Below, one piece after another: positions 2,244 to 61,136 of a DNA stretch of 64,000 nucleotides. Source of the DNA: an uncultured Treponema sp. (GTDB taxonomy: Bacteria; Spirochaetota; Spirochaetia; Treponematales; Treponemataceae); contig CAMOTL010000003.1 in the NCBI GenBank assembly GCA_946625725.1, positions 733 through 64,732 on the forward strand, given 5' to 3'. Both the position numbers and the translations under genes were made by a program. Position 1 is the stretch's first letter. Each line of letters begins with the position of its first letter. The notes beneath the pieces are model-generated. The model ran no database searches. It had not been told where the DNA came from and was given only the letters and a program-made list of their open reading frames with translations.

Positions 2244-2253
2244 TCCTCTTTTG

Positions 2254-2282
2254 TTGTAAAAATGCGCATTGTGCGGTAAAAT
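2254..2282 (+). promoter_or_regulatory. Putative sigma70 promoter of the phosphoribosyltransferase gene
   Basis: TTGTAA (2254-2259), 17 nt, TAAAAT (2277-2282); AAGGA SD before ATG 2304. Confidence 0.5.
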
Positions 2283-2303
2283 AATAAAAATAAGGACAAC
2301 AAT

Positions 2304-2906: not shown

Positions 2907-2927
2907 TGCATTGACAGAGAGATTTTT

Positions 2928-5027
2928 ATGATAAAAAAGTTACTGATTGCTGTTTTAGCTTCCTTTTTAACCTCTGCAGTTTCTGCCCAGAGAATCATTT
3001 CTCCGGTTGCAGGAAACTTTTCCAACAAACAGACTCTTGTACTTGATACAAGCGACGGGGCAGAGTGTTTTTATTCATTTACGGGAAGCGATCCTTTAAC
3101 TTCGGGTTTTGCATACGACGGCCCGGTTTTAATTGATACAATCGGACGCGTAACTGTCAGAGTTGCAGTTGTTTTTGGTGAAAACCATTCGGAAGAAGCG
3201 GAAGTTATTTTTAATGTTCAGGAAAACAACCCTTATAACGAAGACTCCGAAGAAAGTTATTTTATCAAAAATGTAGCAAACAAAGGAATTTTCACATACA
3301 CAGAAGACAATCCCTTAAAGATTCCCGCTTCGTTTTCCTACTCCCTGGGTGACGGAGAAAAACCTCAGATGCCGGGCAAAACCCTTACAATGGACAGCGC
3401 AAACGTTTTGTCACGTTTTGTAAGCTGTAGCGTAGCTGAAGGAAACAACTTGTGGCGCTTTGTAATCTTTGTTCCTGGCGGTGAAGTTGGAGTTTTGTCA
3501 AAGCAGTCAGTTCCTTTTAAAATCCAGGACTGGAACACTTTTATCTTTGAAGGCGAAAAATTAATCTATTCAATTGACGGCGGAGAATGGTCGGCATCTA
3601 AAGTGCCTGTAACTCTGGACCGTTCCTTAAAACACAAGATTTCATGGCAGTCGGTTGCCTACGAAAAGGGAAATCCGGTGCACAACTTTGTTCTTCCGGT
3701 TGAACCTAAACTTGTTTCTTCAAAAAACAGCCGCGGTGCCGCAACATTCAGAATTGACGGAGACGTACGCTACAGAATGAGCGTCGTATCTTCAAACGCA
3801 GCCGGTACAAATTCAACAAACAAGGGACTTATTTCAAGCGCAGTCTTTGACACCTTTGAAGGTGACAATATCTGCGGAGAAGCCGTATTTGAACTTTTCT
3901 GTGACGGTGTAAGCCAGGGCTTAAAGCGCGCCTACTACGAAGTTGACAGGCAGCCGCCGCTTCCTCCAAAGTTTAATCCGTCCAACAAGGGCTTTTACTC
4001 TCGGGGCAAGGTTGAACTTAAAATCAGCAGCGAGCGCGACACTCAGATTTCCTATTCAATCAGTGCTCCGCTTAAAGTAAATGATTCTGACTTTGAAGTA
4101 CGCTCGGCGGAACTGGATAAGATTCAGACCGGAAGTTTTGTTCCGTACAATGATACAATAACACTTTTGAGCAACAGTGAAGCTCCTGTTTTTTACAAGG
4201 TAAAGGCCTTTGCAAAAGACAAGGCAGGCAACACAAGCCTCATGAGCGAGTACCGCGTAATCATTGATGAATTCAATTATTACCTGGACTCAAGTGCAAC
4301 TTCCATGTCACCTGACGGAAGCCGCAAAAATCCTTTCAATTCATTTGAGCAGGCTGTCGGCATTATCAACCAGGGACGCTTTGCCCACTTCTTTGTAAAG
4401 GGTGAATTTACACTTCCTTCAAAGGAGATTCTGATTAATTCAAACTGTGCTTTTACGGCAGTCGCTGAAAGCACAATTATAATTCCGCCTCAGGGAAGCA
4501 TTCTGCTGCGCGGGGCAAGCCTTGAAGCACACAATCTGATAATTCAGAAAGAAAGAAGCCAGGCTTTTAATTCAAATACAAAGATGGTTACCCTGGAAAA
4601 CGCAACTGCAAGTTTTTATGACTGTGAAATTCTTTCCCTCTTTGATGAATCTGGAACTGCCTTCTCGGCACTTAATTCGGTAATTGAACTTGATTCCACC
4701 GGGCTCACGGGACAGGCTGATTCATACATTTGTGCGGTAAGCGGCCAGGATTCAAAAGTATTCTGTAAAAACGGACGCGTTTCATGTGTGGCTCAGACAG
4801 CAGTAAACTTTAGCGTAAACGGCGGTTTGTTCGAGTGCCGTTCATCGAGCCTCAGAGTAACGGCTCATCTTGGCCGGATTGCAGAACTGTCTGGAACAAA
4901 CTCTCGCATGACTGACAATGAAATGACCGGAACCTTTGAAAAGAAGGTCAGGGGAGTTGTACCGGTCTGGTCTGACAGAGACACCTTGATTCTCGAAGAT
5001 AAAAATAATTCAAGTACGGGCTTTTAA
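2928..5027 (+). CDS. Exported multidomain hypothetical protein (chitobiase-C/Fn3-like modules plus C-terminal beta-helix-like region)
   Basis: Signal peptide MIKKLLIAVLASFLTSAVSA; FYSFTGSDP and YKVKAFAKDKAGNTS Ig/Fn3-like motifs; DGSRKNPFNSFEQAV motif. Confidence 0.6.
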   Translation: MIKKLLIAVLASFLTSAVSAQRIISPVAGNFSNKQTLVLDTSDGAECFYSFTGSDPLTSGFAYDGPVLIDTIGRVTVRVAVVFGENHSEEAEVIFNVQENNPYNEDSEESYFIKNVANKGIFTYTEDNPLKIPASFSYSLGDGEKPQMPGKTLTMDSANVLSRFVSCSVAEGNNLWRFVIFVPGGEVGVLSKQSVPFKIQDWNTFIFEGEKLIYSIDGGEWSASKVPVTLDRSLKHKISWQSVAYEKGNPVHNFVLPVEPKLVSSKNSRGAATFRIDGDVRYRMSVVSSNAAGTNSTNKGLISSAVFDTFEGDNICGEAVFELFCDGVSQGLKRAYYEVDRQPPLPPKFNPSNKGFYSRGKVELKISSERDTQISYSISAPLKVNDSDFEVRSAELDKIQTGSFVPYNDTITLLSNSEAPVFYKVKAFAKDKAGNTSLMSEYRVIIDEFNYYLDSSATSMSPDGSRKNPFNSFEQAVGIINQGRFAHFFVKGEFTLPSKEILINSNCAFTAVAESTIIIPPQGSILLRGASLEAHNLIIQKERSQAFNSNTKMVTLENATASFYDCEILSLFDESGTAFSALNSVIELDSTGLTGQADSYICAVSGQDSKVFCKNGRVSCVAQTAVNFSVNGGLFECRSSSLRVTAHLGRIAELSGTNSRMTDNEMTGTFEKKVRGVVPVWSDRDTLILEDKNNSSTGF

Positions 5028-5620
5028 TGAACTTAATCTGTGGACTTGATGAAGCAGGGCGCGGACCTCTTGCGGGCCCTGTCGTTGCAGGCTGTGTAAT
5101 TTTGCCGGAAAACTTTCCTGTAGAAATCTTGAACGATTCAAAAAAACTTTCGGAAAAAAAACGGGTCGCAGCAGAAAAAATAATTAAAGAAAAGACCTGC
5201 TGGGGAATCGGCATTATTGACCACGAAACAATCGATAAAATCAACATCCTTCAGGCAAGCATGCAGGCAATGAAAAATGCATATGAAATGATGATGATAA
5301 AACTTCCGGGGTGGCTTAAAGAAAATAAAATGAAGTTCAACCCTGAAGACATTGTTTTGCAAGCCATCACCGACGGAACTACATGCCCGCCCGTTTCATG
5401 CCCGGTTCGGGCTGAGCCAAAGGCCGACGGCAAGTATCCCTGTGTTATGGCAGCAAGTATTCTTGCAAAAGTGTGCCGTGACAACATGATGGTCGAATAC
5501 GACAAACTCTACCCGCAGTACGGATACGCAAAACACAAGGGCTATCCCACACCTGCCCATAAAAAAATATGCCGCGAGATCGGACCAAGTCCAATCCAGC
5601 GGCTTACTTTCAGTTACTGA
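5027..5620 (+). CDS. rnhB: Ribonuclease HII
   Basis: GLDEAGRGPLAGPV, DSKKLS, AASILAKV and HKGYPT motifs; start overlaps the upstream stop (TAATG). Confidence 0.96.
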   Translation: MNLICGLDEAGRGPLAGPVVAGCVILPENFPVEILNDSKKLSEKKRVAAEKIIKEKTCWGIGIIDHETIDKINILQASMQAMKNAYEMMMIKLPGWLKENKMKFNPEDIVLQAITDGTTCPPVSCPVRAEPKADGKYPCVMAASILAKVCRDNMMVEYDKLYPQYGYAKHKGYPTPAHKKICREIGPSPIQRLTFSY

Positions 5621-6024
5621 TTGTCGTCTGCGGCAGGCTTTGATTTGATGTGAATCACTTTGCCTGTGCGTTTGATTCCGTCAGGTTTGCGTTTGTCATC
5701 ATCACCTTTTTTGCGGTAGATGCGCTTTTCAGAACCTGCTCCGTATTTTGCGTCCTTTGCAGCTTTCTTTTCTGCCCGGGCTTTTTTACGGTTTTTCTGT
5801 TCTTTATCGATAAATTTGAGGGCTGTATCAAGTCCGCCCAGAACTTTCTGCATGTCTTCTGCAAAAATTGCAATCTGGTGACGGTCAAAATCTGCTCCGT
5901 CGCCTTTTTTACTCTCTACAATCTGGAGAAAAACATCACCGGTACGGTTTTCTTTTACGTTGAAAAAATACGAACGGTTTTCCAAAACTACTTCTGTTGT
6001 ATAAAGTTCACCGCGAATTCCCAT
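5614..6024 (-). CDS. PUR/DUF3276-like nucleic-acid-binding protein
   Basis: RSYFFNVKENRTGDVFLQIVESK...RHQIAIF resembles the PUR repeat; Lys-rich tail; AAGGA SD; 7-nt convergent overlap with rnhB. Confidence 0.75.
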   Translation of the reverse strand: MGIRGELYTTEVVLENRSYFFNVKENRTGDVFLQIVESKKGDGADFDRHQIAIFAEDMQKVLGGLDTALKFIDKEQKNRKKARAEKKAAKDAKYGAGSEKRIYRKKGDDDKRKPDGIKRTGKVIHIKSKPAADDNQ

Positions 6025-6099
6025 ATTATCCTTCCTTAAAAATGTAATATGATTTTATAAAAACTTTTGTGTGCGAAGTTTACTATACTTGTATTTGAA

Positions 6100-7281
6100 C
6101 TAAATTTCAAGGGAAAAATCTCTGCATACTTCAAGTACAGCGTTAAAAAGTGCGTCCAGATCCCGCTCAGAAGTTTCCCTGCCAAAACTGAATCGTACTG
6201 CGGTTTCCTGCAAATCTCCCCGAACTCCCATTGCGCTTAAAATCGGGCGGGACTGCTTTTTTGCCGAGCACGCACTTCCGGTAGAAATGCTGAATCCTTT
6301 GCTGTCCAGTGCCCGGACCATCACATTTCCTGGAATTCCTTTAAATGCTGCCTGCACCACATACGGACTGAATTTATCAAGATTATCTTTGTCCGTTCTA
6401 CATTCCGGAATCAAAGTGCAGTCTCTGATTGAATTTAATTTTGTTACAAAATCAAAGGATTTCTGCTGTTCATCAGCTGTCTTTTCATTTTTTTTGATAA
6501 AGTATTTTGAAAGACATTTTGAAAAGGCCAGTGCACCAAAAAGGTTTTCGGTGCCGCTCCTGACAGATTTTTCCTGTCCGCCTCCCAGCAGAAACGGTTT
6601 AATCGGACGGCGGAGGACCAGGATGCCGATTCCCCGCGGTCCGCGAAGCTTGTGGGCGCTTAAGGCTGCGCTGTCGATGCCCGGATAATTTAAATCCAGC
6701 GGAATTTTTCCTGCAGCCTGCACGCAGTCTACATGAAAGTGCGGGCGGCGCTTTCCTTTGCTTGCTCTGGTGATTGCGTCAGAAATTGCATAAATATCCT
6801 GTACACAGCCTGTTTCGTTATTGACCGCCATTACCGTTACATAGACTGTATCCGGAGTAATTTTTGCGGCAACTGAGTCCGGATCAATAAAACCGCTGTT
6901 GTCGGGATTGATGGATTCAACTGTAAAACCTGCTTTTTTTAAGGCATGGGCCTGCTCGCGGATTGCAGGGTGTTCAATTGAACTTATCAGGATTTTTCCG
7001 CGCCTGCCTTCTGAGTCCGGTTCACGGTTTAATAGCGCAAGCAGTGGAATCTGGTCGCTTTCCGTGCCGCCTGATGTAAAATAAACTTCTTCTGCTTTAA
7101 CACCGATTGCGCTTGCACATTCAGCGCGGGCTTTTTCAAAAATATCCCGGGCCTTTTTTCCTTCGCTGTGATTTGCTGATGGATTTGCAAAGTTTGCGCA
7201 GGCTTCCCTTAGTGAGTCCTGTAAAATTTCTTCGTCTGACGGCGTGGTTGCGGCCCAGTCAAAATATTTTGAAAAATCCAT
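6100..7281 (-). CDS. iscS: Cysteine desulfurase, group I (IscS/NifS-like)
   Basis: TSGGTES, HVDCVQAAGK, SAHK (PLP lysine), RSGTEN and STGSACS (catalytic Cys). Confidence 0.9.
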   Translation of the reverse strand: MDFSKYFDWAATTPSDEEILQDSLREACANFANPSANHSEGKKARDIFEKARAECASAIGVKAEEVYFTSGGTESDQIPLLALLNREPDSEGRRGKILISSIEHPAIREQAHALKKAGFTVESINPDNSGFIDPDSVAAKITPDTVYVTVMAVNNETGCVQDIYAISDAITRASKGKRRPHFHVDCVQAAGKIPLDLNYPGIDSAALSAHKLRGPRGIGILVLRRPIKPFLLGGGQEKSVRSGTENLFGALAFSKCLSKYFIKKNEKTADEQQKSFDFVTKLNSIRDCTLIPECRTDKDNLDKFSPYVVQAAFKGIPGNVMVRALDSKGFSISTGSACSAKKQSRPILSAMGVRGDLQETAVRFSFGRETSERDLDALFNAVLEVCRDFSLEI

Positions 7282-48642: not shown

Positions 48643-50751
48643 ATGGTAAATAGAGTAAGTTATAAAATCGGCGACAACGAGCTCATCCTTGAAACCGGCA
48701 AAATCGGTAAACAGGCAAACGGCTGTATTTATGCACAGTATGCTGGAACTGCCGTAATTGCTACGGTTTGTGCTTCAAAAGAAGTAAAAGAAGGATTGGA
48801 CTTTGTTCCAGTTACCGTTGAATACAACGAAAAATACTACGCTGCAGGTAAAATTCCTGGCGGCTTTATCAAACGTGAAGGACGACCGAAGGATAAGGAA
48901 ATTCTCGTTTCCCGTCTTATCGACCGCCCGATGCGTCCGTTGTTTGAAGTAAGTTTTGGCCGCGAAATTCAGATTGTACCTACATGTGTATCTTCTGACG
49001 GCGTTAACCCGCCGGATATTCTCGCAGTAATCGCATCATCAGCTGCAGTAAGCATTTCTGACATTCCGTTCCACGGACCGGTTGCTGCTGCCCGCGTTGC
49101 TTACATCGACGGTGAATATGTTATTAACCCTACATTCCAGCAGCAGGAAAAAGCTCAGCTGGAAATCGTAGTTGCCGGTACAAAAGACGGCTTTACTATG
49201 GTTGAAGGCGGTGCAAACGAAGTTAGCGAAGAAGTTATGCTTGGCGCTCTTGATAAGGCACAGGGCTTTATCACAGCAATGTGTGAACTTCAGGAAGAAC
49301 TTGTTGCAAAATGCGGCAAGGAAAAACTCCCTCTTGCTCCACTTACTGTAGAACTTGAAAACAAAGACGCACTTATTGCAGAAGCTACTCCACTTCTGGA
49401 AAAAGCATGCTTCCAGAACGGTAAAGATAACCGCGGAAATGCAATCAGCGCTGCTAAAAAACAGATTATTGAAGCTCACGCAGAACAGTTCGAAGATGAA
49501 ATTCAGAGAAAACTCTTTGACCAGTGTTTTGATGACATCCAGTACAACCTCCTGCGCAAGAGCATTTTGGACAAGGGACTTCGTATTGACGGACGCAAAT
49601 GCGACGAAATCCGCCCGATTACATGTGAAGTAAACGTTCTTCCTCGTCCGCACGGATCTGCTTTGTTCACCCGTGGTGAAACACAGTCACTTGCCGTAAC
49701 AACTCTGGGAACAACACTTGACGCTCAGGTTTACGACGATATCGATGGCGAACGCAGTGAAAACTTTATTCTTCACTACAACTTCCCGCCATACTCAGTT
49801 GGTGAAACAGGACGTCTTACAACAGGACGCCGCGAAATTGGTCACGGAAACCTTGCACGCCGTTCACTGGCTCCAATGATTCCACCAGTAAGCGAATTCC
49901 CTTACACAATACGTGTAGTTTCAGAAATCATGGAATCCAACGGTTCTTCTTCACAGGCTTCTACCTGTGGCGGCTGTTTGAGTTTGCTTGCAGCCGGCGT
50001 TCCAATGAAAAAGATGGTTGCCGGAATCGCAATGGGACTTATTACAGAACCTGAAGGAGACAATCCTTACGGACGTTATAAGATTCTTTCTGATATCCTT
50101 GGAGAAGAAGATCACCTCGGTGATATGGACTTTAAGGTAGCCGGAACAAAAGACGGTATTACCGGATTCCAGATGGACATCAAGATTGCAGGTGTTACAA
50201 CTCAGATTATGAAGGAAGCACTTGCTCAGGCTAAAGCCGGTCGTCTCCACATTCTTTCAATCATGGAAAAATGTATTGACAAACCGCAGCCAATCAGTCC
50301 TTTTGCTCCAAAAATTCTTACACTCAAAATCAGTCCGGACAAAATCGGTGCTTTGATTGGACCAGGCGGAAAGAACATTAAGGCTCTCTGCGCCCAGTAC
50401 AATGTTACAATCAACACAGAAGACGACGGAACTGTTCAGATTTACGGTAAAACAGGTAAATCTGCAGAAGAAGCTAAGATGGCTGTAAAAGGCATCTGTG
50501 AAGATCCTGAAGTAGGAACAATTTACAATGGTACAGTAAAGCGCATTATGGACTTTGGTGCCTTTGTAGAAATCCTCCCTGGAAAAGAAGGTCTTTGCCA
50601 CATTTCCAAATTGTCACGGGCAAGAGTAGAAAAGGTAACAGACGTTCTTTCTGAAGGACAGCAGATTCCTGTAAAACTCCTCGAAGTTGACAAGATGGGA
50701 CGCTTGAACCTGAGCTACATCGACGCTTTGGAAGAACAGCAGAAAAAATAA
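48643..50751 (+). CDS. pnp: Polyribonucleotide nucleotidyltransferase
   Basis: RLIDRPMRPLF, FTRGETQ, ESNGSSS, GDMDFKVAGT, KH and S1 domains; GGAGG SD. Confidence 0.97.
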   Translation: MVNRVSYKIGDNELILETGKIGKQANGCIYAQYAGTAVIATVCASKEVKEGLDFVPVTVEYNEKYYAAGKIPGGFIKREGRPKDKEILVSRLIDRPMRPLFEVSFGREIQIVPTCVSSDGVNPPDILAVIASSAAVSISDIPFHGPVAAARVAYIDGEYVINPTFQQQEKAQLEIVVAGTKDGFTMVEGGANEVSEEVMLGALDKAQGFITAMCELQEELVAKCGKEKLPLAPLTVELENKDALIAEATPLLEKACFQNGKDNRGNAISAAKKQIIEAHAEQFEDEIQRKLFDQCFDDIQYNLLRKSILDKGLRIDGRKCDEIRPITCEVNVLPRPHGSALFTRGETQSLAVTTLGTTLDAQVYDDIDGERSENFILHYNFPPYSVGETGRLTTGRREIGHGNLARRSLAPMIPPVSEFPYTIRVVSEIMESNGSSSQASTCGGCLSLLAAGVPMKKMVAGIAMGLITEPEGDNPYGRYKILSDILGEEDHLGDMDFKVAGTKDGITGFQMDIKIAGVTTQIMKEALAQAKAGRLHILSIMEKCIDKPQPISPFAPKILTLKISPDKIGALIGPGGKNIKALCAQYNVTINTEDDGTVQIYGKTGKSAEEAKMAVKGICEDPEVGTIYNGTVKRIMDFGAFVEILPGKEGLCHISKLSRARVEKVTDVLSEGQQIPVKLLEVDKMGRLNLSYIDALEEQQKK

Positions 50752-50773
50752 TCTCCCGTATGGGTGATATAAG

Positions 50774-50806
50774 ACCGGTCCTCGCACAGGGGACCGGTTT
50801 TTTTTT
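50774..50806 (+). terminator. Intrinsic terminator after pnp
   Basis: ACCGGTCC / GGACCGGT stem followed by a run of T. Confidence 0.85.
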
Positions 50807-50915
50807 ATGTTTTTTTTAATACATTAGCGCTCAGATATGGTTTATTTATATCATTCGTGTTATATTATTAGAGATATTAAAGATAATTTTTGGTTATTTT
50901 TCAGGGGAGTTTATT

Positions 50916-53783
50916 ATGATTCATTCATTCTCTAAGCGTCTTACAAATGCTCTTGTTTTGTGTTGTGCTGTTTTTTTCAGCCTGAGCGCAATGTGTTGTT
51001 CTTTGTTTGAACCTGTTGAAAAGGGGGAACTTACTTTTACCGTTACTAGGGAAATGGTCAGAAGTGTAAAGGAAAGTATTTCCGGTAATTTTAGTTATAG
51101 TGACCCGGTTGAACCAGGAAAGGAATCTTCTGACGTTCCTGAAAACTTAATGTTTATAAAAATCGCCCTTTCAAAAGGTTTTAAGGCTGAACAGACTGTT
51201 CCTTTTACCGAAGGTAAATCTATAGTTTTTAAAGATGTTCCGGTTGGTATTGTAGTTGAAATCGAAGCCCTTGTTTTTGAACGTTATGAAAATGAAGGAA
51301 AGGAACAGATTACAGATAGATTTACCGGTAAAAAAATAATCACGACTGTTCCAGGAAATAATGATGTAGAACTTGAATTGTATGACTGTTCGCCGGTTGA
51401 ACCTATTGAACCAGTTGAACCGGTTGACCCTGATCCTGATGAACCGGTTGACCCGGTAGAACCTGTTGAACCTGTTGAACCTGTTGAACCTGTAAATCAG
51501 TTTATCCAAAAGACAATTTACGTTTCTTCAGAAGGAAGGGACGGAACTTACGATGTTGAAGGTGAAGACGGCATAATGACAGAAGTTGCAGCTGACGGAA
51601 GTGAAGACATGCCTTTTAAAACTGTAACAAAAGCCCTTAAAGAGATTGTTTTAAATGGCAGTGGATATATTGATTGGACTATTTCTGTAAGCGGACAACT
51701 TGAAACAGATTCAACAGTTGAAATTCCGTCCGAGATAACATCTGATAAGGCTCATTCTATTTTGCTTACCGGTTTGAACGGTGTTGATGAAGCAACAGGA
51801 GAACCGCAGGATGTGATTAACAGAGGCTCTACGGGAGCTTATAACGGCAGTTATACAAGTTCTGTGCTTAAAGTAAGCTCTTCAGTGCCTGTGACTGTTA
51901 CTAATCTTAAGCTGACCGGCGGAAAAACGGAGAATGGCGGCGGTATAAATATTTCTTCAAATGCCTGTGTTTCTCTTGGAGACGGTGTTTTAATCACAAA
52001 AAACCGGGCAACAAGAGGCGGGGCAGTATTTAATCAGGGAAAACTTTTTGTTTACGGTACTGCCGTTATCGGTGATGTTAATGCTTCAATTTATGCTAAT
52101 AACAGCTCAACTCAGAATTTAAGTGCAAGTGAATGTGCAAACCTGGCAAGCTCATACGGCGGCGGTATTTATAACGGGGATACTGCCCAGACAGTAGCAA
52201 AAACTTCAATAGTTTCAGAACTCTATCTCGGTTATAAAATGAATTCAGATGGAAATCCTGAAAAAACTCCATGGACAGGCGGTATTTATTATAGCGGAGC
52301 CGCTTCTGGAGGGGCTGTTTATAATTCAATAAAATCATCTACTTATTTTGACAGCGGTACATTAAAATATAACGGAGTTTCCTCTTACGGAGGGGGAATT
52401 TACAATGGAGATGCCGGCCGCGTAGAAATGAGCGGCGGTTCCATCATAAAAAACCGCGCTTCAGATTCTTTAGGCATTAAGAATGGTGGTGGCGTCTGCA
52501 ATGATTACCTGAACAGTGTTTTTGTTATGAGCGGTGGTGTTATCAACGAAAATCAGGCTATAACTCTAACAACTGCCGGAATAACAGTGAATTCCACTGA
52601 CGGTCAGGGCGGCGGTGTGTTTAACGGCGGACTAATGTTTATGTATGGGGACGCCGTAATCGGAAACAAAAACGCAGAAACTTTTGCAACAGATACTTCA
52701 TGCGGCAATATAGCCGGTCAGGGCGGCGGAATTTATAATGATTATTCAACTGACAGACGCGGTTATCTTTATATCGGTTATAAACCGGGTGATGACGGCG
52801 TAAGCCCTGCCGAAGCAGAACTTCGTGGCGGAATTTATAATAATTTTGCATGTTATGAGGGGCAATCTCAAGATGGCGGCGGTGGTATCTGCAGTACAAC
52901 GATACCAAGTTTTGGTACAGTGCAGATGTCTTCAGGAACAGTTGCTTACAATGCGGCAGCATGTTACGGCGGTGCGATACTTGCAAAGGAACTGATTCTG
53001 TACGGCGGCACTATTGAAAATAACAGGGCAGAACTTGCCGGTGGTGCCGTATACATGGACTCGAATACAGATAAGACTCTTACGCTGGGTTCAGATATTT
53101 TAATTCCTTTAGCCGGAAATGAAGTAAACGGTTTTGACAATGATATCAGTCTTTATGCAGGCACAACTGCTTTCTATTCAAAAATAGTGATTGCTTCTGC
53201 CCTGCACGAAAACTTTAAAACAAGACTTACATTCAATAAATATATTTCAGATATACAGGTGGTTCGGGCAGCCACCGGTGCAGAAGGTGTTGATTTAAGT
53301 GTTGAATGCACAAAATTCGCTGTAGCAGACGAAGTAAATGACGAGCTCATCACAGCTAGACAGTGGTGCATAGACGCAAACGGAAAACTTACTGCAAAAA
53401 ATCCTCTGGTTACGATTACAATTGAACCGGGGTCTTATTCTGATATGACAGTTTCTGCCTGTTCTTATGAGGATAAAGCAACTTATGATGATGATCCAAG
53501 TTCCAGCGGAACAGCAATAGATGGATCAACTTCTGTTACACCAGGCACATATCTCGTGTTTACAGCAAGCCTTCCTTCAGGCAAAACTCTAAAAGAGGGC
53601 ACCTCATACACCTGGTATCTGGACGGAGAAATGCAGGAATTCCCTACAACGGCGGACACTTCAAAATTCGGCGTGGTCACATCTGAGTGGGCTGTCGGTG
53701 TTTATGACATTGCAGTAGAAGCCACTGACTCTGCCGGAACCTCTTATTCAATTGAATATCATATTACGGTAAAGGCAAACTAG
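50916..53783 (+). CDS. Large surface lipoprotein with Pro-rich linker, GGA(I/V)Y beta-helix repeats and C-terminal Ig-like domain
   Basis: Signal peptide ending SAMC-C; PVE repeats; many GGGIY/GGAVY/GGGVF motifs; YTWYLDG; GGGAG SD. Confidence 0.75.
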   Translation: MIHSFSKRLTNALVLCCAVFFSLSAMCCSLFEPVEKGELTFTVTREMVRSVKESISGNFSYSDPVEPGKESSDVPENLMFIKIALSKGFKAEQTVPFTEGKSIVFKDVPVGIVVEIEALVFERYENEGKEQITDRFTGKKIITTVPGNNDVELELYDCSPVEPIEPVEPVDPDPDEPVDPVEPVEPVEPVEPVNQFIQKTIYVSSEGRDGTYDVEGEDGIMTEVAADGSEDMPFKTVTKALKEIVLNGSGYIDWTISVSGQLETDSTVEIPSEITSDKAHSILLTGLNGVDEATGEPQDVINRGSTGAYNGSYTSSVLKVSSSVPVTVTNLKLTGGKTENGGGINISSNACVSLGDGVLITKNRATRGGAVFNQGKLFVYGTAVIGDVNASIYANNSSTQNLSASECANLASSYGGGIYNGDTAQTVAKTSIVSELYLGYKMNSDGNPEKTPWTGGIYYSGAASGGAVYNSIKSSTYFDSGTLKYNGVSSYGGGIYNGDAGRVEMSGGSIIKNRASDSLGIKNGGGVCNDYLNSVFVMSGGVINENQAITLTTAGITVNSTDGQGGGVFNGGLMFMYGDAVIGNKNAETFATDTSCGNIAGQGGGIYNDYSTDRRGYLYIGYKPGDDGVSPAEAELRGGIYNNFACYEGQSQDGGGGICSTTIPSFGTVQMSSGTVAYNAAACYGGAILAKELILYGGTIENNRAELAGGAVYMDSNTDKTLTLGSDILIPLAGNEVNGFDNDISLYAGTTAFYSKIVIASALHENFKTRLTFNKYISDIQVVRAATGAEGVDLSVECTKFAVADEVNDELITARQWCIDANGKLTAKNPLVTITIEPGSYSDMTVSACSYEDKATYDDDPSSSGTAIDGSTSVTPGTYLVFTASLPSGKTLKEGTSYTWYLDGEMQEFPTTADTSKFGVVTSEWAVGVYDIAVEATDSAGTSYSIEYHITVKAN
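51393..51494 (+). repeat. Coding 9-bp tandem repeat (Pro-Val-Glu/Asp), 34 aa
   Basis: CCGGTTGAA/CCTGTTGAA units encoding PVEPIEPVEPVDPDPDEPVDPVEPVEPVEPVEPV. Confidence 0.9.
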
Positions 53784-53800
53784 GAGAGGGGAGAATACTT

Positions 53801-56800
53801 ATGAAAAATATTTTTGTAAACAGAATAAAACTTTTTGCAGCGGCTGTTTCCCTGCTTTTAATATGTTCCTGTTCGGACGATTTTTCCAGAACAGTGCAGG
53901 ATAAAAATTACCCGAGCAAAGACGGAAAAACTTATCTTTGTTTAAGTGCGGCACTTTCTCCTGAAGCGCGAAGTATTGCTCCTAAGGCAAGTGATTATGC
54001 AGTTTCAAACTTAACAAACCTGGTACTTTCAGGAAAACTTTCTTCTGACACTGGCGCTGAAACTCAGCTTGCATCTGCTTCGGCTTACGATATTATTAAC
54101 GGAAAAAACATTCCTGTAAGCGGGGCCGGAAACTGGACTTTTACTTTAACGGCAGATTTAAACGGTATTCCTTTTAAGGGAACTCTCGAACAGGAAATTA
54201 CTGAAGGTTCTGTTAATACGCTTACTTTTACACTTAAGTCAGAACAGAATCAGGGCGGCATGGAAATTACCTTTAAGTTTACAGGAAGTTCAACAGAGGC
54301 TTCTGATTATAAAGTTAATGCTGTTTTGATGACTCAGGATAAGGAAGAAATCGAAACTAAAACTTTTGAAAACACAGCAGACGACACTTCAGCAGTCATT
54401 GCGTGTTCAACCGATACAACCGATACAACTTTCTATGTAGTTTACTCCCGTTCTGTTTCTGATACAGAAAGCAGCCTTGACGCAGGTACTTATTATCTTT
54501 TGTTTGAAGTTTATGACAAGCGGACTGTCGTCGAAGATCCTCTAAACACAAGTGATTCTGTGCCGTTAAACACAAGCAGAAACTTTGTCCGTGTTGACAG
54601 GGGAATTACTACAACTGCCGAACTTTCACTTACATTAAATGAAGTTTATTCAATTACCTATAACGACAATGGCGGAGATCTTGCAGAGGGTGTTAAGGTT
54701 CTCAATTATTCAAGAAAAAGCGAAGGAATTAAACTGCCTCAGATGATAAAAGACGGTTATGAATTTGCCGGCTGGTACGATAATGCTGATTTTTCGGGGG
54801 ATCCTGTTCAGGAGCTTCCGCTGGGAACAACAGGAAACCTTACATTCTGGGCATGCTTTACCGAAGAAACTGAAGAAAAAAATGTTCTTTATGTTTCTCC
54901 TAAAGGCTCCGAAACAAACACCGGTTCACTTGATTCAATTGCCGCCGCTGTTGCTAAAATCATAGAAAATCCTAATCCGGACGCAAACTGGACAATCAAG
55001 ATTGATGGAATTCTTACAGGCCCACAGAAAATAGAAGATATTTCAGAAGACCATGCCGCTTCACTTACAATCTGCGGTGCAAACGCTCTGGACAGCGAAG
55101 GAAATCCTTCAGACAAAATAATTGCAGATACTAATAATCCGGGAAGCGATGCCCTGAGTATTTCTGCAAGCCTTCCTGTAACAATAAAAGATATAAAGAT
55201 TACAAAAGGTGAGGACGGCGAGGATGATCCGAGTTACGGTGTTTATGTGGCATACAACTCACAGATTTATCTTGCCGGCACTCCGGTGATAGATGATCTG
55301 TATGTGGAAAATAACGAGTATTACAGGGATTCTGAGGAACCTTATGGTGCAATTTCAATTTCTGAGGATTTAGGAGATAAAGCTTCTGTTACGATTACAC
55401 CTGCATATGAATCCCATTATCCTTATTTCGATGATTATGATAGTCATGAAGTATGTATTACAAAGTATGTTTTTGCTATTGATGGTGTTAGTGTTGCTGA
55501 TTACTGTGACAAATTTAAGGTTACACCGAAAGAAGAGGATTCTTCTACATATTTTATAGATAAATACGGCCGTATAAATAAAAACATTACTGTAACTTTA
55601 GTAAGTTCACAGACAGGTCAGACTTTTAATAAGACTGTACTTTATGGCTCGGATCCTTCAACACTTAATATTGACCTTAATGAAAATACTGGCTGGACTT
55701 TTGCCGGCTGGTTTACATCTGATGATGAAGGTGAAACGCTTAAAGATAAAGTTACTCTTATTTATGAAGAGGGCCTTACCCTCTACGCAAAATGGGTACA
55801 GCCGCTTGAAGATTTATATGTAAATACCTCATCCGGCTCAGATGATAATGAAGGAACCACTACCGCTCCGCTAAAGACGGTAAGTGCTGCAGTTGCAAAA
55901 ATTAAGGATTTTGGCGTAGAACTTGATTACACTATACATGTAACTGGAATGAGCACAGAAAACAGTACCATAACTCTTGATGAAAGTATCACATTTAAAA
56001 CTCTTACTTTTGAAGGTGCTGCTACAGTTGAATCTGGTATAGTAAATAAATCATATGGCTCTACACCACTTGTTGTTGAAACTGTCAAACCTGTTACACT
56101 CAATAACTTTGTTTTGAAAGCTAATTCTTTTGTAAATATTAAAAATGGTGCGCTTGCGCTTTATGTCGGATACGGCGCGAATGTTATTCTTGGTAACGGC
56201 ACAAAGATTTATGGCTCTGACGGCTCTGATGGCGTAAATACTACTGCTGGAAAAGCGGGTGTTTATATTTACGGTGCAACACTTACTATGAATGGTGATT
56301 CAGCAATTTACGGCTTTGCTCCTAGATATAGCGGCAGCTCTGACACCAACGGCTCAGGTGGCGTTTTAATTGGGTATGACGGAAAACTGATAATGAATGG
56401 TACATCTTCTATTCATTCTTGTTCTGCTGGTAGCAGGGGCGGTGCAATACATCTTGCTTCGGGCAGTGTGGTTATGAACGATTATGCTTCCATTGGCGGT
56501 GAGGGTAAAGCCTGTTCTGCTTCTGCTGATGGTGGTGCCGTATATATGTCCGGCGGAGAATTTGAAATGAATGATTCAAGTTCAATCAGTTACTGTACAA
56601 AAGGTTCAAACGGATACGGTTCAATATACATAGCAGGCGGTACCTTTACCATGAACGACGGTTCAATTAACAATAATACAGGTGGCGTACATGTGGCAAA
56701 AACAGACTCTTCCACTGCCACATTTATTATGGAAGATGGTTCAATTTCTAATAACGGTATTGGTGTTTATGTTGCATGTGCTACTAATGACAGTACTTAT

Positions 56801-57241
56801 AGTGGTATTTTTGACATGAGGGGCGGAACTATCTCTGATAACACAGAACATGGTGTTCAGGTTGAAGCATATGTCAGCAGAGATGTAGGGTATAATTCAT
56901 ATTCCGGAACCTTTATGATGTCAAATTGTGCACTTGTTGCTACTACAAACGATGTATATCTGGGGTATAACAGTTATACTCATCCGTATTATAATGATAC
57001 TTATACTTCTCAGGCTCGGATTCTTATTACAGGTGCCCTTGCTGGTGATGATTACAATCCAATAAAGGCGACAATTACACCGCAAAGTTATTCAGAAGGT
57101 TTACCGGTTCTTGAAGCAGATGATACCGTATTACTGAATAATGCTGCTCCAAAATTTGCCGTAACACCTCAGACTGATGGCGATGGTAATCAGATTACCT
57201 GGACAATTTCCGATGACGGTAAGTTAGTAAAACAAGAATAA
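53801..57241 (+). CDS. Large surface lipoprotein with two InlB-B (Listeria-Bacteroides) type repeats and beta-helix repeats
   Basis: Lipobox-like LLLICSC; GYEFAGWY and GWTFAGWF...LTLYAKW; YVSPKGS and YVNTSSGSD modules; GGAIHL/GGAVYM repeats. Confidence 0.75.
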   Translation: MKNIFVNRIKLFAAAVSLLLICSCSDDFSRTVQDKNYPSKDGKTYLCLSAALSPEARSIAPKASDYAVSNLTNLVLSGKLSSDTGAETQLASASAYDIINGKNIPVSGAGNWTFTLTADLNGIPFKGTLEQEITEGSVNTLTFTLKSEQNQGGMEITFKFTGSSTEASDYKVNAVLMTQDKEEIETKTFENTADDTSAVIACSTDTTDTTFYVVYSRSVSDTESSLDAGTYYLLFEVYDKRTVVEDPLNTSDSVPLNTSRNFVRVDRGITTTAELSLTLNEVYSITYNDNGGDLAEGVKVLNYSRKSEGIKLPQMIKDGYEFAGWYDNADFSGDPVQELPLGTTGNLTFWACFTEETEEKNVLYVSPKGSETNTGSLDSIAAAVAKIIENPNPDANWTIKIDGILTGPQKIEDISEDHAASLTICGANALDSEGNPSDKIIADTNNPGSDALSISASLPVTIKDIKITKGEDGEDDPSYGVYVAYNSQIYLAGTPVIDDLYVENNEYYRDSEEPYGAISISEDLGDKASVTITPAYESHYPYFDDYDSHEVCITKYVFAIDGVSVADYCDKFKVTPKEEDSSTYFIDKYGRINKNITVTLVSSQTGQTFNKTVLYGSDPSTLNIDLNENTGWTFAGWFTSDDEGETLKDKVTLIYEEGLTLYAKWVQPLEDLYVNTSSGSDDNEGTTTAPLKTVSAAVAKIKDFGVELDYTIHVTGMSTENSTITLDESITFKTLTFEGAATVESGIVNKSYGSTPLVVETVKPVTLNNFVLKANSFVNIKNGALALYVGYGANVILGNGTKIYGSDGSDGVNTTAGKAGVYIYGATLTMNGDSAIYGFAPRYSGSSDTNGSGGVLIGYDGKLIMNGTSSIHSCSAGSRGGAIHLASGSVVMNDYASIGGEGKACSASADGGAVYMSGGEFEMNDSSSISYCTKGSNGYGSIYIAGGTFTMNDGSINNNTGGVHVAKTDSSTATFIMEDGSISNNGIGVYVACATNDSTYSGIFDMRGGTISDNTEHGVQVEAYVSRDVGYNSYSGTFMMSNCALVATTNDVYLGYNSYTHPYYNDTYTSQARILITGALAGDDYNPIKATITPQSYSEGLPVLEADDTVLLNNAAPKFAVTPQTDGDGNQITWTISDDGKLVKQE

Positions 57242-57247
57242 ACTTTC

Positions 57248-57279
57248 ACAGGCTCAGGTAAAACTGAGCCTGTTTTTTT
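57248..57279 (+). terminator. Intrinsic terminator after the surface-protein pair
   Basis: ACAGGCTCAG / CTGAGCCTGT 10-bp stem, 6-nt loop, T tract. Confidence 0.88.
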
Positions 57280-57340
57280 ATCTGTGTCCCATCCTCACGT
57301 ATCTGTGTTCATCTGTGTCTCATTTATTCCATCTGTGTCG
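57280..57340 (+). repeat. Left direct repeat, decamer-periodic (ATCTGTGTYY)
   Basis: ATCTGTGTCCC ATCCTCACGT ATCTGTGTTC ATCTGTGTCT (57280-57320), plus ATCTGTGTCG at 57331-40. Confidence 0.85.
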
Positions 57341-57476
57341 AAAAAACTGCTATATTTATTCTAAAATAACAGAAAATTATCCCTGTTTTTTGTCGGTTTT
57401 TAAAAATCAAAACAATATATATAGTGTACGTAAAAGCTAACGCAATCCGTTAATTCAATATTATTGTGGGAAAAAA

Positions 57477-58041
57477 ATGTCCGAATTTAATATAACCTAT
57501 GACGAGCGCTGGGAAAATCTTACACTGGCGAATAATTATATTTTTTACATAGTAATGCGTCATCACCCGGACGCATGCAAGCATTTGATTGAACTTTTAC
57601 TTGGCATTAAAATCGACAAAATAGAAATGCGCGGAGAGGAATCTGTGTCTTGAGGATAATTCAATCAGACTGAATGATCGTGCCTTTAAACACTTTTTTA
57701 TAGCAGAAAATTGTGTTAAAATTACAGGTAATAAAGAGATGCAGGAATTTTTTGAATTTTTACTTTCTAATAAAAGTTCAAATGGTTTTACTTCAGATTT
57801 GGGAAATTATGTTGAGGATGCAAAACATAATACCCGATGGAGGCAGCAGTATATGACATGGGAAAGAATGCAGACTTACGCAAGAGACGAAGGTTCGTTA
57901 GAAAAGGCAATTGAAATTGCCGAAAACCTCCTCAAAATGAACTTACTTACTCCAGAACAGATTGCACAGGCTGTAAATCTCCCCCTTGAACAGATTCTTT
58001 CCATAAAAGAGAATCTACTCGCAGAGCCGGCTGAAAAATAA
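57477..58041 (+). pseudogene. Rpn-family (PD-(D/E)XK_2) gene with internal deletion and frameshift; C-terminal 100-codon ORF intact
   Basis: 57477-57653 reads MSEFNITYDERWENLTLANNYIFYIVM...LIELLLGIKIDKIE...* in one frame. LEDNSIRLNDRAFKHFF...WRQQYMTWE...KAIEIAENLLKMNLLTPEQIAQAV follows in another frame. The catalytic core is absent. Confidence 0.82.
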
Positions 58042-58043
58042 AT

Positions 58044-58105
58044 ATCCGCGCCTCATTCACACGTATCCGTGTCTCATCCCCACGTATCTGTGTTCATCTG
58101 TGTCT
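58044..58105 (+). repeat. Right direct repeat with an extra 21-bp tandem unit
   Basis: 58065-58105 matches 57280-57320 at 38/41; 58044-58064 matches 58065-58085 at 17/21. Confidence 0.85.
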
Positions 58106-58171
58106 TTATAAATTCGTCTCCTGCAAAATATTCCTGTTTCTATTTCTCCGTTTTTTATGTATAATAAAATC

Positions 58172-58612
58172 ATGAACAAAATTGATATCAAATGTGTTGC
58201 TGCAAAAGGCGCTGTTATTCCGCAATATAAGACTGCAGGAGCTGCTGGTGCTGACATCTGCGCTCTTCTGGAAAGTGATGTTGTGCTCAAAAAAGGTGAG
58301 CGTGCCATGATTCCCACGGGGCTGTTTTTTGAAATCCCTGCCGGTTATGAAATTCAGGTAAGACCGCGCTCAGGGCTCGCTGCTAAAAACGGGGTTACTG
58401 TTTTAAACACTCCGGGAACCATAGATAGCGATTACCGCGGCGAAGTAAAAGTTATTCTTATCAATCTCGGTAGCGAAGACTTTACTATAAAAAACGGTGA
58501 GAGAATTGCACAAATCGTTGTTGCGCCGGTAACTTTAGGTTCATTCCAGGTTGTTGATAAACTTGACGAAACTGAACGCGGCGCCGGTGGATTTGGAAGC
58601 ACAGGAAAATAG
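58172..58612 (+). CDS. dut: dUTP diphosphatase
   Basis: [37 protein letters not shown] 58172 chosen; ATG 58157 overlaps a TATAAT box. Confidence 0.95.
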
Positions 58613-58620
58613 TTTTTTAT

Positions 58621-60069
58621 ATGTTCCATTTGTCTGATAAAATCATCGAATTCAACAGGAAAGTTGATGAATTTTATAAAAAAATCAGATCTAAATTCTC
58701 TTCAAAATATAACGATTCAAAAGTACAGAAATCTGTACGCCATATCGAAGCCTTAGGTTATTATTACTATCGTCTGGTTCATAAAAGCAGGGCTTCCAGG
58801 GCTGTACGGGAATTCATTAATTCAAAAATAAAACCTTTTTTTAAGGACTTTAACCTCTTAAATAAAATTTTTGAACTTTTATCCCTTTTGATGTTCAAAC
58901 TGGGCTACAAAAAACAGGGCGAGTACTTATCAACTGCGATGCAGGAAAAATCCGGACTCAACCGCCACGTTTTGTACCGCTACCTTCTAAAAGAACTTTT
59001 TTTGTATTTCTTTGTAGCATTCCTGTTCTTCTTTTTTATTTTCTTTGTAAACCAGATTCTTCTGATTATCCAGAAAATCCTTGAAAAAAAGGTTCCTCTC
59101 TGGGACGTAATGCGCCTTATGACTTACGCCCTGCCGTCTATTATTGCCCAGTCGGCTCCTTTTGCCACCCTCGTAGGCTTTTTGATGTGTCTCGGCCGCC
59201 TTGTAAGTGAAAACGAAATCCTTATTCTCCGGGCGTCAGGGCAGGGATATAAAACAATTTTGATTCCTGTTGTTTCCCTGGGACTTGCAATTTCCTGCGT
59301 TTCATTTTTTGTAAACGACTATATGCTTCCGGTGGGAACCATTAAATACAATGAGCTTTACCGTTCAATCCTTCAGTCAAATCCTGCAGTTGAACTTGAA
59401 CCGAATTCCGTAAAAAAGGCCGTGGATAAAACTCTTGTAATCGGCCAGGTTAAGGACGAAAACGTAAGCGATCTGCTTTTCTTTGATACGGGCACTGACG
59501 AACAGCAGCGTATTATCGTTGCAGACGCCTCTGTCGTAAAAAAGGCCAGTGAGCCCGGCGTTCTTATGGCAATTCAGATGAATAACGCCACTGTCCTTCT
59601 TTTTGACAAGGCCCGCCGCGACAAATACGATGTTCTGACTTCTGACTCCATGCTTCTGAATGTTTTTGAATCTTCAATCAGTTCAACTTCAAATCGTGTA
59701 AGCCCCCGGGAAATGACAAGCTATGACCTTTACAAGCGAATCAAGGCTTTTGAAAAAATGGAAGGTCACTCTAAAAAACAGCTCAATTCATATAAACTTG
59801 AATACAATAAAAAGTTCTCCCTGCCGTTTGGTTCAATCTTTTTTGCCTTCCTTGCGCTTCCTCTTGCTCTTATGTTCGGAAAGCACAACGGTCAGACCAT
59901 CGGTTTGATTATTGGAATTGTTATCAGTGTTTTGTACTGGACAATGATGATTCTTGGACAGATTTTTGGTAACCGCGGTGGTTATTCAGGTTTCTGGATG
60001 ATGTGGGCCCCGAACATTACGATTTTTATTGTCGGGACATGCTTTTACGCGGGGCTTTTAAAAAAATGA
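58621..60069 (+). CDS. lptF: LptF/LptG-family permease (LptF-like), with about 110-aa N-terminal extension or a later start
   Basis: YRYLLKELF, RLVSENEILILRASG, KKFSLPFG, WAPN; paired with a second permease. Confidence 0.8.
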   Translation: MFHLSDKIIEFNRKVDEFYKKIRSKFSSKYNDSKVQKSVRHIEALGYYYYRLVHKSRASRAVREFINSKIKPFFKDFNLLNKIFELLSLLMFKLGYKKQGEYLSTAMQEKSGLNRHVLYRYLLKELFLYFFVAFLFFFFIFFVNQILLIIQKILEKKVPLWDVMRLMTYALPSIIAQSAPFATLVGFLMCLGRLVSENEILILRASGQGYKTILIPVVSLGLAISCVSFFVNDYMLPVGTIKYNELYRSILQSNPAVELEPNSVKKAVDKTLVIGQVKDENVSDLLFFDTGTDEQQRIIVADASVVKKASEPGVLMAIQMNNATVLLFDKARRDKYDVLTSDSMLLNVFESSISSTSNRVSPREMTSYDLYKRIKAFEKMEGHSKKQLNSYKLEYNKKFSLPFGSIFFAFLALPLALMFGKHNGQTIGLIIGIVISVLYWTMMILGQIFGNRGGYSGFWMMWAPNITIFIVGTCFYAGLLKK

Positions 60070-61136
60070 CGCTTGTTAAATATCTTGTCAGAAAATTTGT
60101 TCCTCTTTTAATCGGCTCTGTATTCTTTTTTGCCTTTGTACTGGTTCTTGTAGACCTTTTCATGAACCTCTGGAATTTTATTTCAAATGCTGTTCCGGCA
60201 GGCACGGTTTTTAAAATCATGGTCCTGTACATTCCAAAAACGATGTGGTACGCAGCCCCCCTTGGAATTCTTTTTGCAGTTTCTTACACGCTTTCTGACT
60301 TTTACGCAAATAATGAACTTATTGCGATTTTTGCTTCGGGAGTTCCCCTCATTAAGTTTACGGCACCTCTTCTTGTAATTTCCGTATTATTGAGTTTTGG
60401 ACTTTTTTATTTTGAAGACAAGGTTGTAGTTCCCACTTATGCAAAAAAAGTTGAATTGCAGGATTTTGCCCTTAATCAGGAAAAAACACTTAATAATGAC
60501 AAAATTGTCGTCATGAGTGAAAAGGGTAACGTTGTCTATAAGGCAGACTTTTTTGACAACTCAGCCCTCAGGCTTTACACAGTTTATATTATTATCAGAA
60601 ATGAAGACAAAACCCTGAACTGCGTTGTCCGTGCAGACAGTGCGCTCTGGGTAGAAGACCACTGGAAACTCAGCGGTGCTACCAAATACACTCTTAACGG
60701 CGACACTCTTGAAACAAGCGAAGTTGATGAAGAAACACTTAACCGTCTTACAGAAATTCCTGAAACCTTCCGTAACAACACAATCAGCGTTGAAACAGTA
60801 AACACTAAAGAAGCCAGGGCTTATATACGGCACTTAAAAAAAGCGGGCCTTCCTTATGGAGAGCCTCTGAGCGTTTATTATAAAAAGTATTCATTTCCGT
60901 TTATTCTTTTTATCGTCGTTTTTCTGTCGATTGGTTTGAGCGGAAAAACCCGTAAAAACGTAATGCTTATCAGTCTTGCATCCTGTATCAGTGCTGCTGT
61001 AATTTATTATGTTTTCCAGATGGTAACCATGCTTATGGCAAAATTCGGGGTTCTTACGCCGTTCCTGGGCGCATGGCTTCCTGTTGCGCTCTTTGTCGCG
61101 ATAAGTGTAGTTCTGCTCAAACATGCGCGCACTTAA
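60066..61136 (+). CDS. lptG: LptF/LptG-family permease (LptG-like)
   Basis: KYLVRKF, NNELIAIFASGV, KKYSFPF, AWLP; ATGA overlap with the upstream stop. Confidence 0.82.
   Translation: MTLVKYLVRKFVPLLIGSVFFFAFVLVLVDLFMNLWNFISNAVPAGTVFKIMVLYIPKTMWYAAPLGILFAVSYTLSDFYANNELIAIFASGVPLIKFTAPLLVISVLLSFGLFYFEDKVVVPTYAKKVELQDFALNQEKTLNNDKIVVMSEKGNVVYKADFFDNSALRLYTVYIIIRNEDKTLNCVVRADSALWVEDHWKLSGATKYTLNGDTLETSEVDEETLNRLTEIPETFRNNTISVETVNTKEARAYIRHLKKAGLPYGEPLSVYYKKYSFPFILFIVVFLSIGLSGKTRKNVMLISLASCISAAVIYYVFQMVTMLMAKFGVLTPFLGAWLPVALFVAISVVLLKHART

Follow-up and report, generated by a model that had tools for sequence, protein, structure and literature searches.

Genes of the rpn family are gained and lost singly, carry neither terminal inverted repeats (TIRs) nor target-site duplications (TSDs), have variable ends, and depend on recombination or hitchhiking (PMC10400941). 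In Escherichia coli, Rpn consists of a toxin, RpnL, with an intragenic C-terminal antitoxin, RpnS (PMC10400941), and for rpnC independent insertion at one position was suggested by Kingston et al. (PMC5350276). As toxin/defence genes, rpn genes are common; no vehicle is known for their gain and loss between strains, and a published survey reported no flanking repeats (PMC10400941). We analyzed a stretch of 64,000 nucleotides from an uncultured gut Treponema sp. (contig CAMOTL010000003.1), hereafter the window, in which the remnant of an Rpn-family gene lies between two 41-nt direct repeats, hereafter the arms, in the interval between pnp and the dUTPase gene dut. Across strains, this one locus presents a natural series in which the Rpn gene is intact, decayed by three routes, swapped, or gone. 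At least one transition in the series runs exactly through the direct-repeat pair, and the locus supplies an arm-bounded presence/absence polymorphism among near-identical strains.

Direct-repeat arms around an Rpn remnant

A repeat search of the window returned a 42-nt direct repeat (57279-57320 and 58064-58105, 93% identity, start-to-start spacing of 785 bp) and no inverted pair bounding the 57280-58105 unit. The 41-bp direct repeats that an earlier note on this DNA had described at 57280-57320 and 58065-58105 are real, with 38 of 41 positions matching and the mismatches falling at arm positions 4, 11, and 17. That note had placed them between the terminator of a surface-protein gene and the dut upstream region; this is borne out by a hairpin at 57248-57273, with the left arm beginning directly after its T-run, and by the dut start codon at 58172, 66 nt beyond the end of the right arm. 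The extra units it had listed, CATTTATTCC-ATCTGTGTCG on the left (57321-57340) and the 21-nt ATCCGCGCCTCATTCACACGT on the right (58044-58064), are both present, and the reverse-strand reading TDEHR that it had picked out was seen as DTDEHR, the reverse-strand reading of the arm, in a spurious open reading frame (ORF) on the minus strand (58057-58317).

Both arms are made of ATC(T/C)GTG units with a period of about 10 nt. The motif ATCTGTGTYY occurs seven times in the 64-kb window against 0.56 expected, a count reached in none of 100 shuffles, and six of the seven copies lie within 57280-58105. Genome-wide, the unit octamer is present in 126 copies without over-representation, and it is the clustering at ~10-nt spacing that is unusual. 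An 18-mer, ATCTGTGTTCATCTGTGT, has only two sites in the window, namely the two arms, and a search of the 2.4-Mb assembly added one copy with two mismatches on contig C35 and none beyond. The window arms are solo, direct, and unstructured, with folding energies of −1.1 and −4.7 kcal/mol, the left arm folding no better than shuffles. Set against the design of a dispersed repeat family, they lie 785 bp apart around an Rpn remnant and are direct rather than inverted. The number of units differs among strains and haplotypes in both arms.

The two ORFs between the arms are pieces of a single gene. The N-terminal ORF (57477-57653) matches, at 56% identity, the beginning of a paralogue on contig C4 that is intact and 296 aa long, and the 100-aa product of the C-terminal ORF is the same in five other contigs. 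Relative to an intact 273-aa allele (L095), the window lacks 257 bp, corresponding to L095 interval 393-649, with 2-nt microhomology at the junction; the catalytic block Y-D-I-E-M-Q lies at interval position 467. Intact alleles score 95.1 bits (L095) and 109.5 bits (L093) on TIGR01784, for which the cut-off is 52.1, and 36.4 and 45.2 bits on PF12784 (PDDEXK_2), for which it is 27.4; PF04754 (Transposase_31, the E. coli-type Rpn) gave no match at E ≤ 0.01. Because of the 257-bp deletion, the window fragments stay below the TIGR01784 cut-off, the C-terminal ORF reaching 18 bits and the N-terminal ORF giving no match. The window copy of rpn is a pseudogene from which the PD-(D/E)XK catalytic core has been deleted, and the Rpn gene between the arms is a decaying passenger. 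An internal ATCTGTGTCT within the remnant was considered as an inserted repeat or recombination scar and rejected, as these bases are native to the gene, the intact alleles encoding FENLCLEDNS there.

The allelic series and its transitions

Variants of the slot were collected from contigs that encode the identical 146-aa Dut, the 100-aa remnant, or an intact Rpn protein, a search that favors alleles retaining the C-terminal ORF (Table 1). An empty site with a single repeat copy, set beforehand as a test, was found in L097, which encodes the identical Dut protein. Removal of 57280-58064 from the window yields L097, save for one extra T in the T-run and four single-nucleotide polymorphisms outside the arm, and the empty and filled alleles are exactly one 785-bp repeat period apart. 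An alternatively filled site was also found, L093 having another rpn allele at this position. Exact look-ups of LptF and of the allele-D and sister-species Dut proteins gave no further haplotypes, and metagenome contigs scanned with the dut start gave a single match, to a contig already in the series. Outside this species no empty site was found; within the GTDB set, the nearest genomes are only ~70-77% identical at dut-lptF and have unrelated upstream neighbors.

The three internal deletions, B1, B2, and B3 (257, 598, and 408 bp), all remove the catalytic motif, and their right ends fall within 37 nt of one another, at or just before the internal ATCTGTGTCT (L095 interval 623-660). B2 lies at a 10-nt identity and the others at 1-2-nt microhomology. 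Every truncated allele retains the 100-aa C-terminal ORF with its own ATG. Its position in the gene is that of the intragenic RpnS antitoxin in the E. coli Rpn proteins, and its retention could reflect selection or be an artefact of how the alleles were found. The only transitions of the series that pass through the arms are A versus B and deletion B2.

On balance, we think that the arms probably acted as passive direct-repeat substrates and that recombination or slippage between them deleted the cassette. Within the hypervariable pnp-dut interval two locally related arms bracket an Rpn toxin/defence gene undergoing loss; either recombination between these direct arms or slippage across them during replication would remove one 785-bp period and leave one arm. 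B2 would be a smaller-scale version of the same event, in which the last unit of the left arm was joined to the identical 10 nt within the gene. Recombination or slippage between the arms is the most likely route because the complete-loss allele retains exactly one arm. Loss is favored over arm-directed capture because three independent inactivating deletions are present and because the arrays slip readily, as judged from the strain-to-strain variation of unit number in both arms. In its downstream flank L097 is nearest the right-arm alleles (98.0-98.8% identity, versus 96.7-96.9% to allele C), which was likewise counted for deletion. We infer from this loss rather than gain, and arms that offer passive homology rather than sites recognized by an enzyme; an assembly search found no arm-specific enzyme encoded in the focal genome.

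Table 1. Features of the pnp-dut slot in the window and alleles of the slot in other contigs
Feature	Location	Strand	Remarks
Surface-protein gene, 1146 aa, Flg_new/List_Bact repeat protein	53801-57241	+	ended by the terminator-like hairpin
Terminator-like hairpin and T-run	57248-57279	+	left flank of the slot; 10-pair stem with 6 GC pairs, T7 tail; hairpin 57248-57273
Left arm, ATCTGTGTCCC-ATCCTCACGT-ATCTGTGTTC-ATCTGTGTCT	57280-57320	+	solo array of phased ATC(T/C)GTG units
Extra left units, CATTTATTCC-ATCTGTGTCG	57321-57340	+	missing in allele D (L093); one unit more in allele C (L095)
Upstream region/5' leader of the rpn cassette	57341-57476	+	83-96% conserved among alleles C, D, and the sister species
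Rpn N-terminal fragment, 58-aa ORF	57477-57653	+	homology to the intact allele stops at ~57640
Internal ATCTGTGTCT	57641-57650	+	immediately right of the deletion junction; native coding N-L-C-L
Rpn C-terminal ORF, 100 aa	57739-58041	+	TIGR01784 positions 215-273, E = 0.002, 18 bits
Degenerate 21-nt unit, ATCCGCGCCTCATTCACACGT	58044-58064	+	5' of the right arm; in all alleles with a right arm, not in the empty allele
Right arm, ATCCGTGTCTC-ATCCCCACGT-ATCTGTGTTC-ATCTGTGTCT	58065-58105	+	identical to the sole arm of the empty allele L097
dut upstream region	58106-58171	+	first 28 nt (TTATAAATTCG...ATATTC) in alleles A and B
dut (dUTPase)	58172-58612	+	right flank; anchor for gathering population variants
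Allele A	L097		terminator, one arm, dut; no rpn
Allele B1	window, L094, L104, L105		both arms; 257-bp internal deletion
Allele B2	L099, L102		598-bp deletion; last unit of the left arm, ATCTGTGTCT, joined to the same 10-mer in the gene
Allele B3	L106		408-bp deletion, reaching from 5' leader sequence into the coding part
Allele B-intact	L137 (Treponema sp. Tb.RUG.258, sister species)		gene intact; left arm and a shorter right arm
Allele C	L095, L096, L098, L100, L112		273-aa gene intact, left arm; right arm and 28 nt replaced by a GC-rich element
Allele D	L093		divergent rpn allele (281 aa) at this site; right end GC-rich as in allele C

Several observations weigh against this account of the arms. 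An ancestral empty site fits the A/B difference equally well. The upstream flank of L097 groups with allele C and L137, and the flanks of this mosaic locus favor neither direction. Arm position 17 is T in all left arms and C in all right arms, and it is C in the single arm of allele A, so that a deletion crossover would be confined to the first 16 of the 41 nt, which is possible. The deletion model also leaves the origin of two related flanking arms unexplained. A set of five same-orientation arms in G128, an isolate assembly whose contigs are large, has an Rpn gene and a HicAB pair between its members, an arrangement that looks more organized than chance. Finally, the right ends of B1-B3 are clustered, with a chance probability of ~0.02-0.06 (n = 3, biased sampling), and this could hint at breakage at the units and not at passive homology.

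The state of the arms in alleles A and B also recalls site-specific integration, one copy at the empty site and two direct copies at the filled site being the classical attB / attL-attR signature, and the arm of L097 is wholly of the right (resident) type. In such an att-like reading the arm would be a landing site, at which a circle carrying rpn and one arm integrates Campbell-style at the resident arm upstream of dut and from which excision reverses the event; the exchange may be stimulated by a GxxExxY nuclease acting in trans or by a recombination-promoting Rpn itself, the E. coli Rpn proteins being known to raise RecA-independent recombination (PMC5350276). The same-orientation arms of G128 separate its Rpn cassette from its HicAB cassette, and between the focal species and its sister species L137 rpn is 98.5% identical, against 91% for lptF and lptG, which shows that the cassette moved recently. 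We nevertheless regard capture at the arms as rather unlikely. The 0.8-1.0-kb unit contains no integrase or other recombinase, the genome lacks PF13366, purified RpnA shows no sequence specificity (PMC5350276), the right arm is missing from four intact alleles (on four contigs), and Rpn loci elsewhere have no arms. Moreover, the tract of high identity shared with L137 extends from ~300 nt inside the surface-protein gene to the dut start codon; it overruns both arms, so the exchange was not arm-bounded, and arm-bounded horizontal transfer is not supported. Alleles C and D are 83-91% identical in the upstream region and 95-100% identical over the last ~130 nt of the gene and the GC-rich element, whereas the gene body is 45-70% identical. 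The two differ in the gene body only, and the second allele was therefore exchanged at conserved intragenic segments; a cassette swap at the arms is not supported, both the upstream region and the final ~130 nt of the gene being shared.

These results divide what the earlier note had proposed. A repeat-delimited, excisable slot is partly supported, by the one-arm empty allele L097 and the alternatively filled L093, but the allele swap and the exchange tract are not arm-bounded. Repeat-mediated gain, which it had also proposed, gained no support in view of the intact alleles without a right arm, the intragenic swap, and the tract that continues past the arms, and loss explains the A/B difference equally well.

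The locus is highly mosaic, the upstream and downstream flanks of one contig grouping with different alleles, and the neighbor upstream of dut varies widely in the genus. These features would suit a reading in which the arms are bystanders that arose by local tandem duplication, with whole alleles exchanged by homologous recombination via the flanking genes, and the variable ends of rpn regions without TIR or TSD (PMC10400941) would agree with this. However, exactly one arm-to-arm period separates the empty from the filled allele, no further rearrangement being seen, and the B2 breakpoint is an arm unit. Breakpoints unrelated to the arms are unlikely to coincide with them twice, and we judge the bystander reading improbable.

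Nearly every species examined has a different neighbor upstream of dut, and across the genus the pnp-dut interval is an insertion hotspot. The pnp gene directly adjoins dut in some congeners (L086, L089, and L091); here (window 48643-58612), two large surface-protein genes and the Rpn slot come between pnp (48643-50751) and dut. Beside the variable slot, a sharp mosaic boundary lies inside the essential dut gene: its 5' half is only 45-65% identical between the sister species (L137:4920-5090 versus window 58172-58340), and the rest of dut, lptF, and lptG are ~90-100% identical in L137.

The GC-rich element that replaces the right arm and 28 nt in alleles C and D is ~135 nt long (CGGCTTAGGGATGGGAGCCCCGCGG...GGGAAAGCCCC, L095:1317-1455) and has an RNA fold of −64 kcal/mol. 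Partial copies occur in the focal genome at C5:53053-53090, C26:3457-3491, C26:13150-13207, and C9:7771-7811, and the C4 rpn paralogue has a comparable GC-rich block upstream of it. The element may represent a second family of dispersed, structured repeats, in a genome that is otherwise 43% GC.

A phased-array family across Treponema

We surveyed 121 congeneric genomes with the 18-mer at up to two mismatches, using the reversed pattern as a control. The 18-mer was found in 41 of the 121 genomes, with up to 148 copies in one, and the reversed control gave three matches in total. PF13366, the GxxExxY family, is present in 11 of 13 arm-rich genomes (those with at least 10 arm matches) versus 24 of the 108 others (Fisher p = 1.6e-5), and in congeners the gene lies between inverted CACAGAT arrays, which agrees with what the earlier note had said of such repeats beside GxxExxY genes. 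The enrichment it had expected beside both nuclease types holds for GxxExxY, by these counts, and fails for Rpn: arms accompany one of eight Rpn genes in G128, and of 43 Rpn-homologue loci elsewhere arms were seen only at the orthologous locus of L137, plus a doubtful two-unit match in a Hungatella contig. A general association of Rpn with the arms was rejected on these figures.

In G128, the 114 pattern matches form three-unit modules, ATCTGTGTnnATCTGTGTnnnATCTGTGGCTAT. Most of these are inverted pairs (ATAGCCACAGAT..ACACAGAT, 10-400 nt, ATCTGTGT..ATCTGTGGCTAT) and some are solitary; they occupy tight intergenic gaps between ordinary genes. The canonical array ends in ATCTGTGGCTAT, and variants with ATCCGTG units adjoin the modules, as in the right arm of the window. 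The sole PF13366 gene of G128 sits exactly inside one inverted pair (L116). The ATC(T/C)GTG units of the window are the arm units found around PF13366 in G092, G057, and G128 (L113, L115, and L116), and other species have the same gene-plus-arms arrangement with a lineage-specific unit (CACAGAT, AAAGATA, and others). The window arms are thus same-orientation, solo members of a Treponema-wide family of phased arrays, the canonical form of which is a short foldback pair, placed either around the single GxxExxY gene of a genome or, without a gene, in tight intergenic gaps. In G092, G057, and G128, the GxxExxY gene with CACAGAT arms occupies the same chromosomal position, between a gene ending in ...VLFED (stop) and a purN-like gene, and because the position is the same in three species, the master copy looks vertically inherited and not recently moved. 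The arms were also considered as general boundaries of accessory genes, and this was rejected, as those of G128 lie mostly among housekeeping genes, for example those for adenine deaminase, a permease, a pseudouridine synthase, and a glycosidase.

The family is nearly extinct in the focal species. The genome has about four arm sites, and an assembly search found no PF13366 gene. Its only canonical foldback (contig C111:2286-2372) pairs three CACAGAT units with three ATCTGTG units across a 24-nt spacer and has a DNA fold of −22.4 kcal/mol (z = −8.8); downstream of it there is an AAA-type ATPase gene. A half-arm of degenerate sequence and reverse orientation, GGGACACAGATGAACACAGGCC (C35:24041-24063), is found ~130 nt upstream of another Rpn-like gene at the end of its contig. 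This gene and the C4 paralogue have in common an upstream module of ~40 nt, TTTTTGAATTTCACCATCTATATATATGTTAGAGAGTTTT, the stretches concerned being C35:24192-24348 and C4:8588-8690.

The distribution of the arrays bears on whether they could be regulatory. With 10-11-nt phasing the units fall on one helix face, and in the window one array lies ahead of the rpn upstream region and the other ahead of the dut upstream region, as might be pictured for phased operators of a DNA-binding protein that controls rpn and dut and whose sites were duplicated as both promoters need them. Alleles C and D, however, have no array upstream of dut, nor do most relatives in the genus; the arrays of G128 occur in all kinds of gaps, often at the 3' ends of convergent genes, and their orientation relative to the adjacent gene is not fixed. 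An operator function for the arrays is, in our view, highly improbable.

In the G128 array noted above (L053 = G128:C3:194000-204000, 2195-6340), five same-orientation arms within 4 kb separate an Rpn gene of 287/313 aa and a HicA/HicB pair. One pair of arms shows 100% identity over 95 nt, and the same 179-nt module (90% identity) stands ahead of each cassette. We speculated that the ATCYGYG arrays could be the recombination sites of an integrase-less cassette system. In it, single-gene cassettes for defence or toxins (Rpn and HicAB) would leave as excised circles and be taken up at resident arms, and the arms would be read by GxxExxY, a small PD-(D/E)XK nuclease, perhaps with help from Rpn. 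We give this bolder proposal little credence; were it true, the dut-proximal slot would be the first locus with empty and filled states among near-identical strains. Just past the last arm of the same array, at L053:6387-6520, there are five tandem 22-nt units (TTGCCCATAAGTTAGCGGCAAC-like) that are imperfect palindromes.

Whatever the role of the arms at dut, the repeats track an uncharacterized nuclease across the genus. These repeats form a large family for which no published description was found, nor was one found for the design of a GxxExxY gene with arms, the listed mentions of GxxExxY in the literature being in passing only. If the arms are recognized sites, they offer a testable route to the function of the GxxExxY protein.

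Comparison with described systems

With the published Rpn genes the locus shares its cargo, a TIGR01784 member, as well as single-gene gain and loss, variation among strains, a second allele at the same position, the lack of TIR and TSD, and variable ends; all its truncated alleles retain the part corresponding in position to RpnS. It differs in that the protein matches PF12784, whereas the E. coli proteins match PF04754, and in that some alleles here lie inside 41-nt direct repeats, whereas the published survey found no identifiable flanking repeats (PMC10400941).

The Ssn nucleases, of the GIY-YIG type, are accompanied by NTS/SRM repeats (PMC11893778). In both cases one small nuclease gene is flanked by a short repeat that numbers tens to hundreds of copies in a genome, and it is the repeat-rich genomes that carry the nuclease gene (PMC11893778); we reused the statistical logic of that work for PF13366 and the ATCYGYG arrays. 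GxxExxY has a PD-(D/E)XK rather than a GIY-YIG fold, however, and its repeats are phased multi-unit arrays rather than a single hairpin motif. In the window, the nuclease partner is missing and the arms enclose an unrelated Rpn gene.

REP/REPIN-RAYT systems and miniature inverted-repeat transposable elements (MITEs) resemble the family in having many short, palindromic, intergenic repeats and one protein-coding master locus per genome; they differ from the window copies, which are solo, direct, and unstructured. Four of five arm-rich genomes lack the Y1/RAYT transposase PF01797, as does the focal genome (it is lacking in G000, G128, G068, G049, and G007 and present only in G088), and a REP/RAYT system was rejected. 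An insertion sequence or transposon was likewise rejected, the repeats being direct and 41 nt long, with no inverted pair and with an Rpn nuclease as the only gene.

Integron cassettes and their attC sites are similar in that single, promoter-proximal accessory genes (Rpn and HicAB) lie between same-orientation sites, with one site when empty and two when filled. In contrast to attC, the arms are direct arrays of units without an imperfect-palindrome structure, and the cassettes carry their own upstream module. Folding of the attC type was rejected on the folding energies of the two arms given above. No integrase was found among the ORFs at 53801-61136 (surface protein, Rpn remnant, dut, and LptF/G), no genome-wide IntI search having been made.

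Slipped mispairing and short-homology recombination between direct repeats are established in bacterial genetics. The locus agrees with deletion between short direct repeats in that exactly one period was lost and one copy was left, and in that further deletions lie at 10-nt and 1-2-nt homology. If the arms provide only passive homology, it is an ordinary but clean case of repeat-mediated gene loss. The only unusual element is the origin of the repeats, in a dispersed, nuclease-linked family, and beyond such deletion the data require nothing more.

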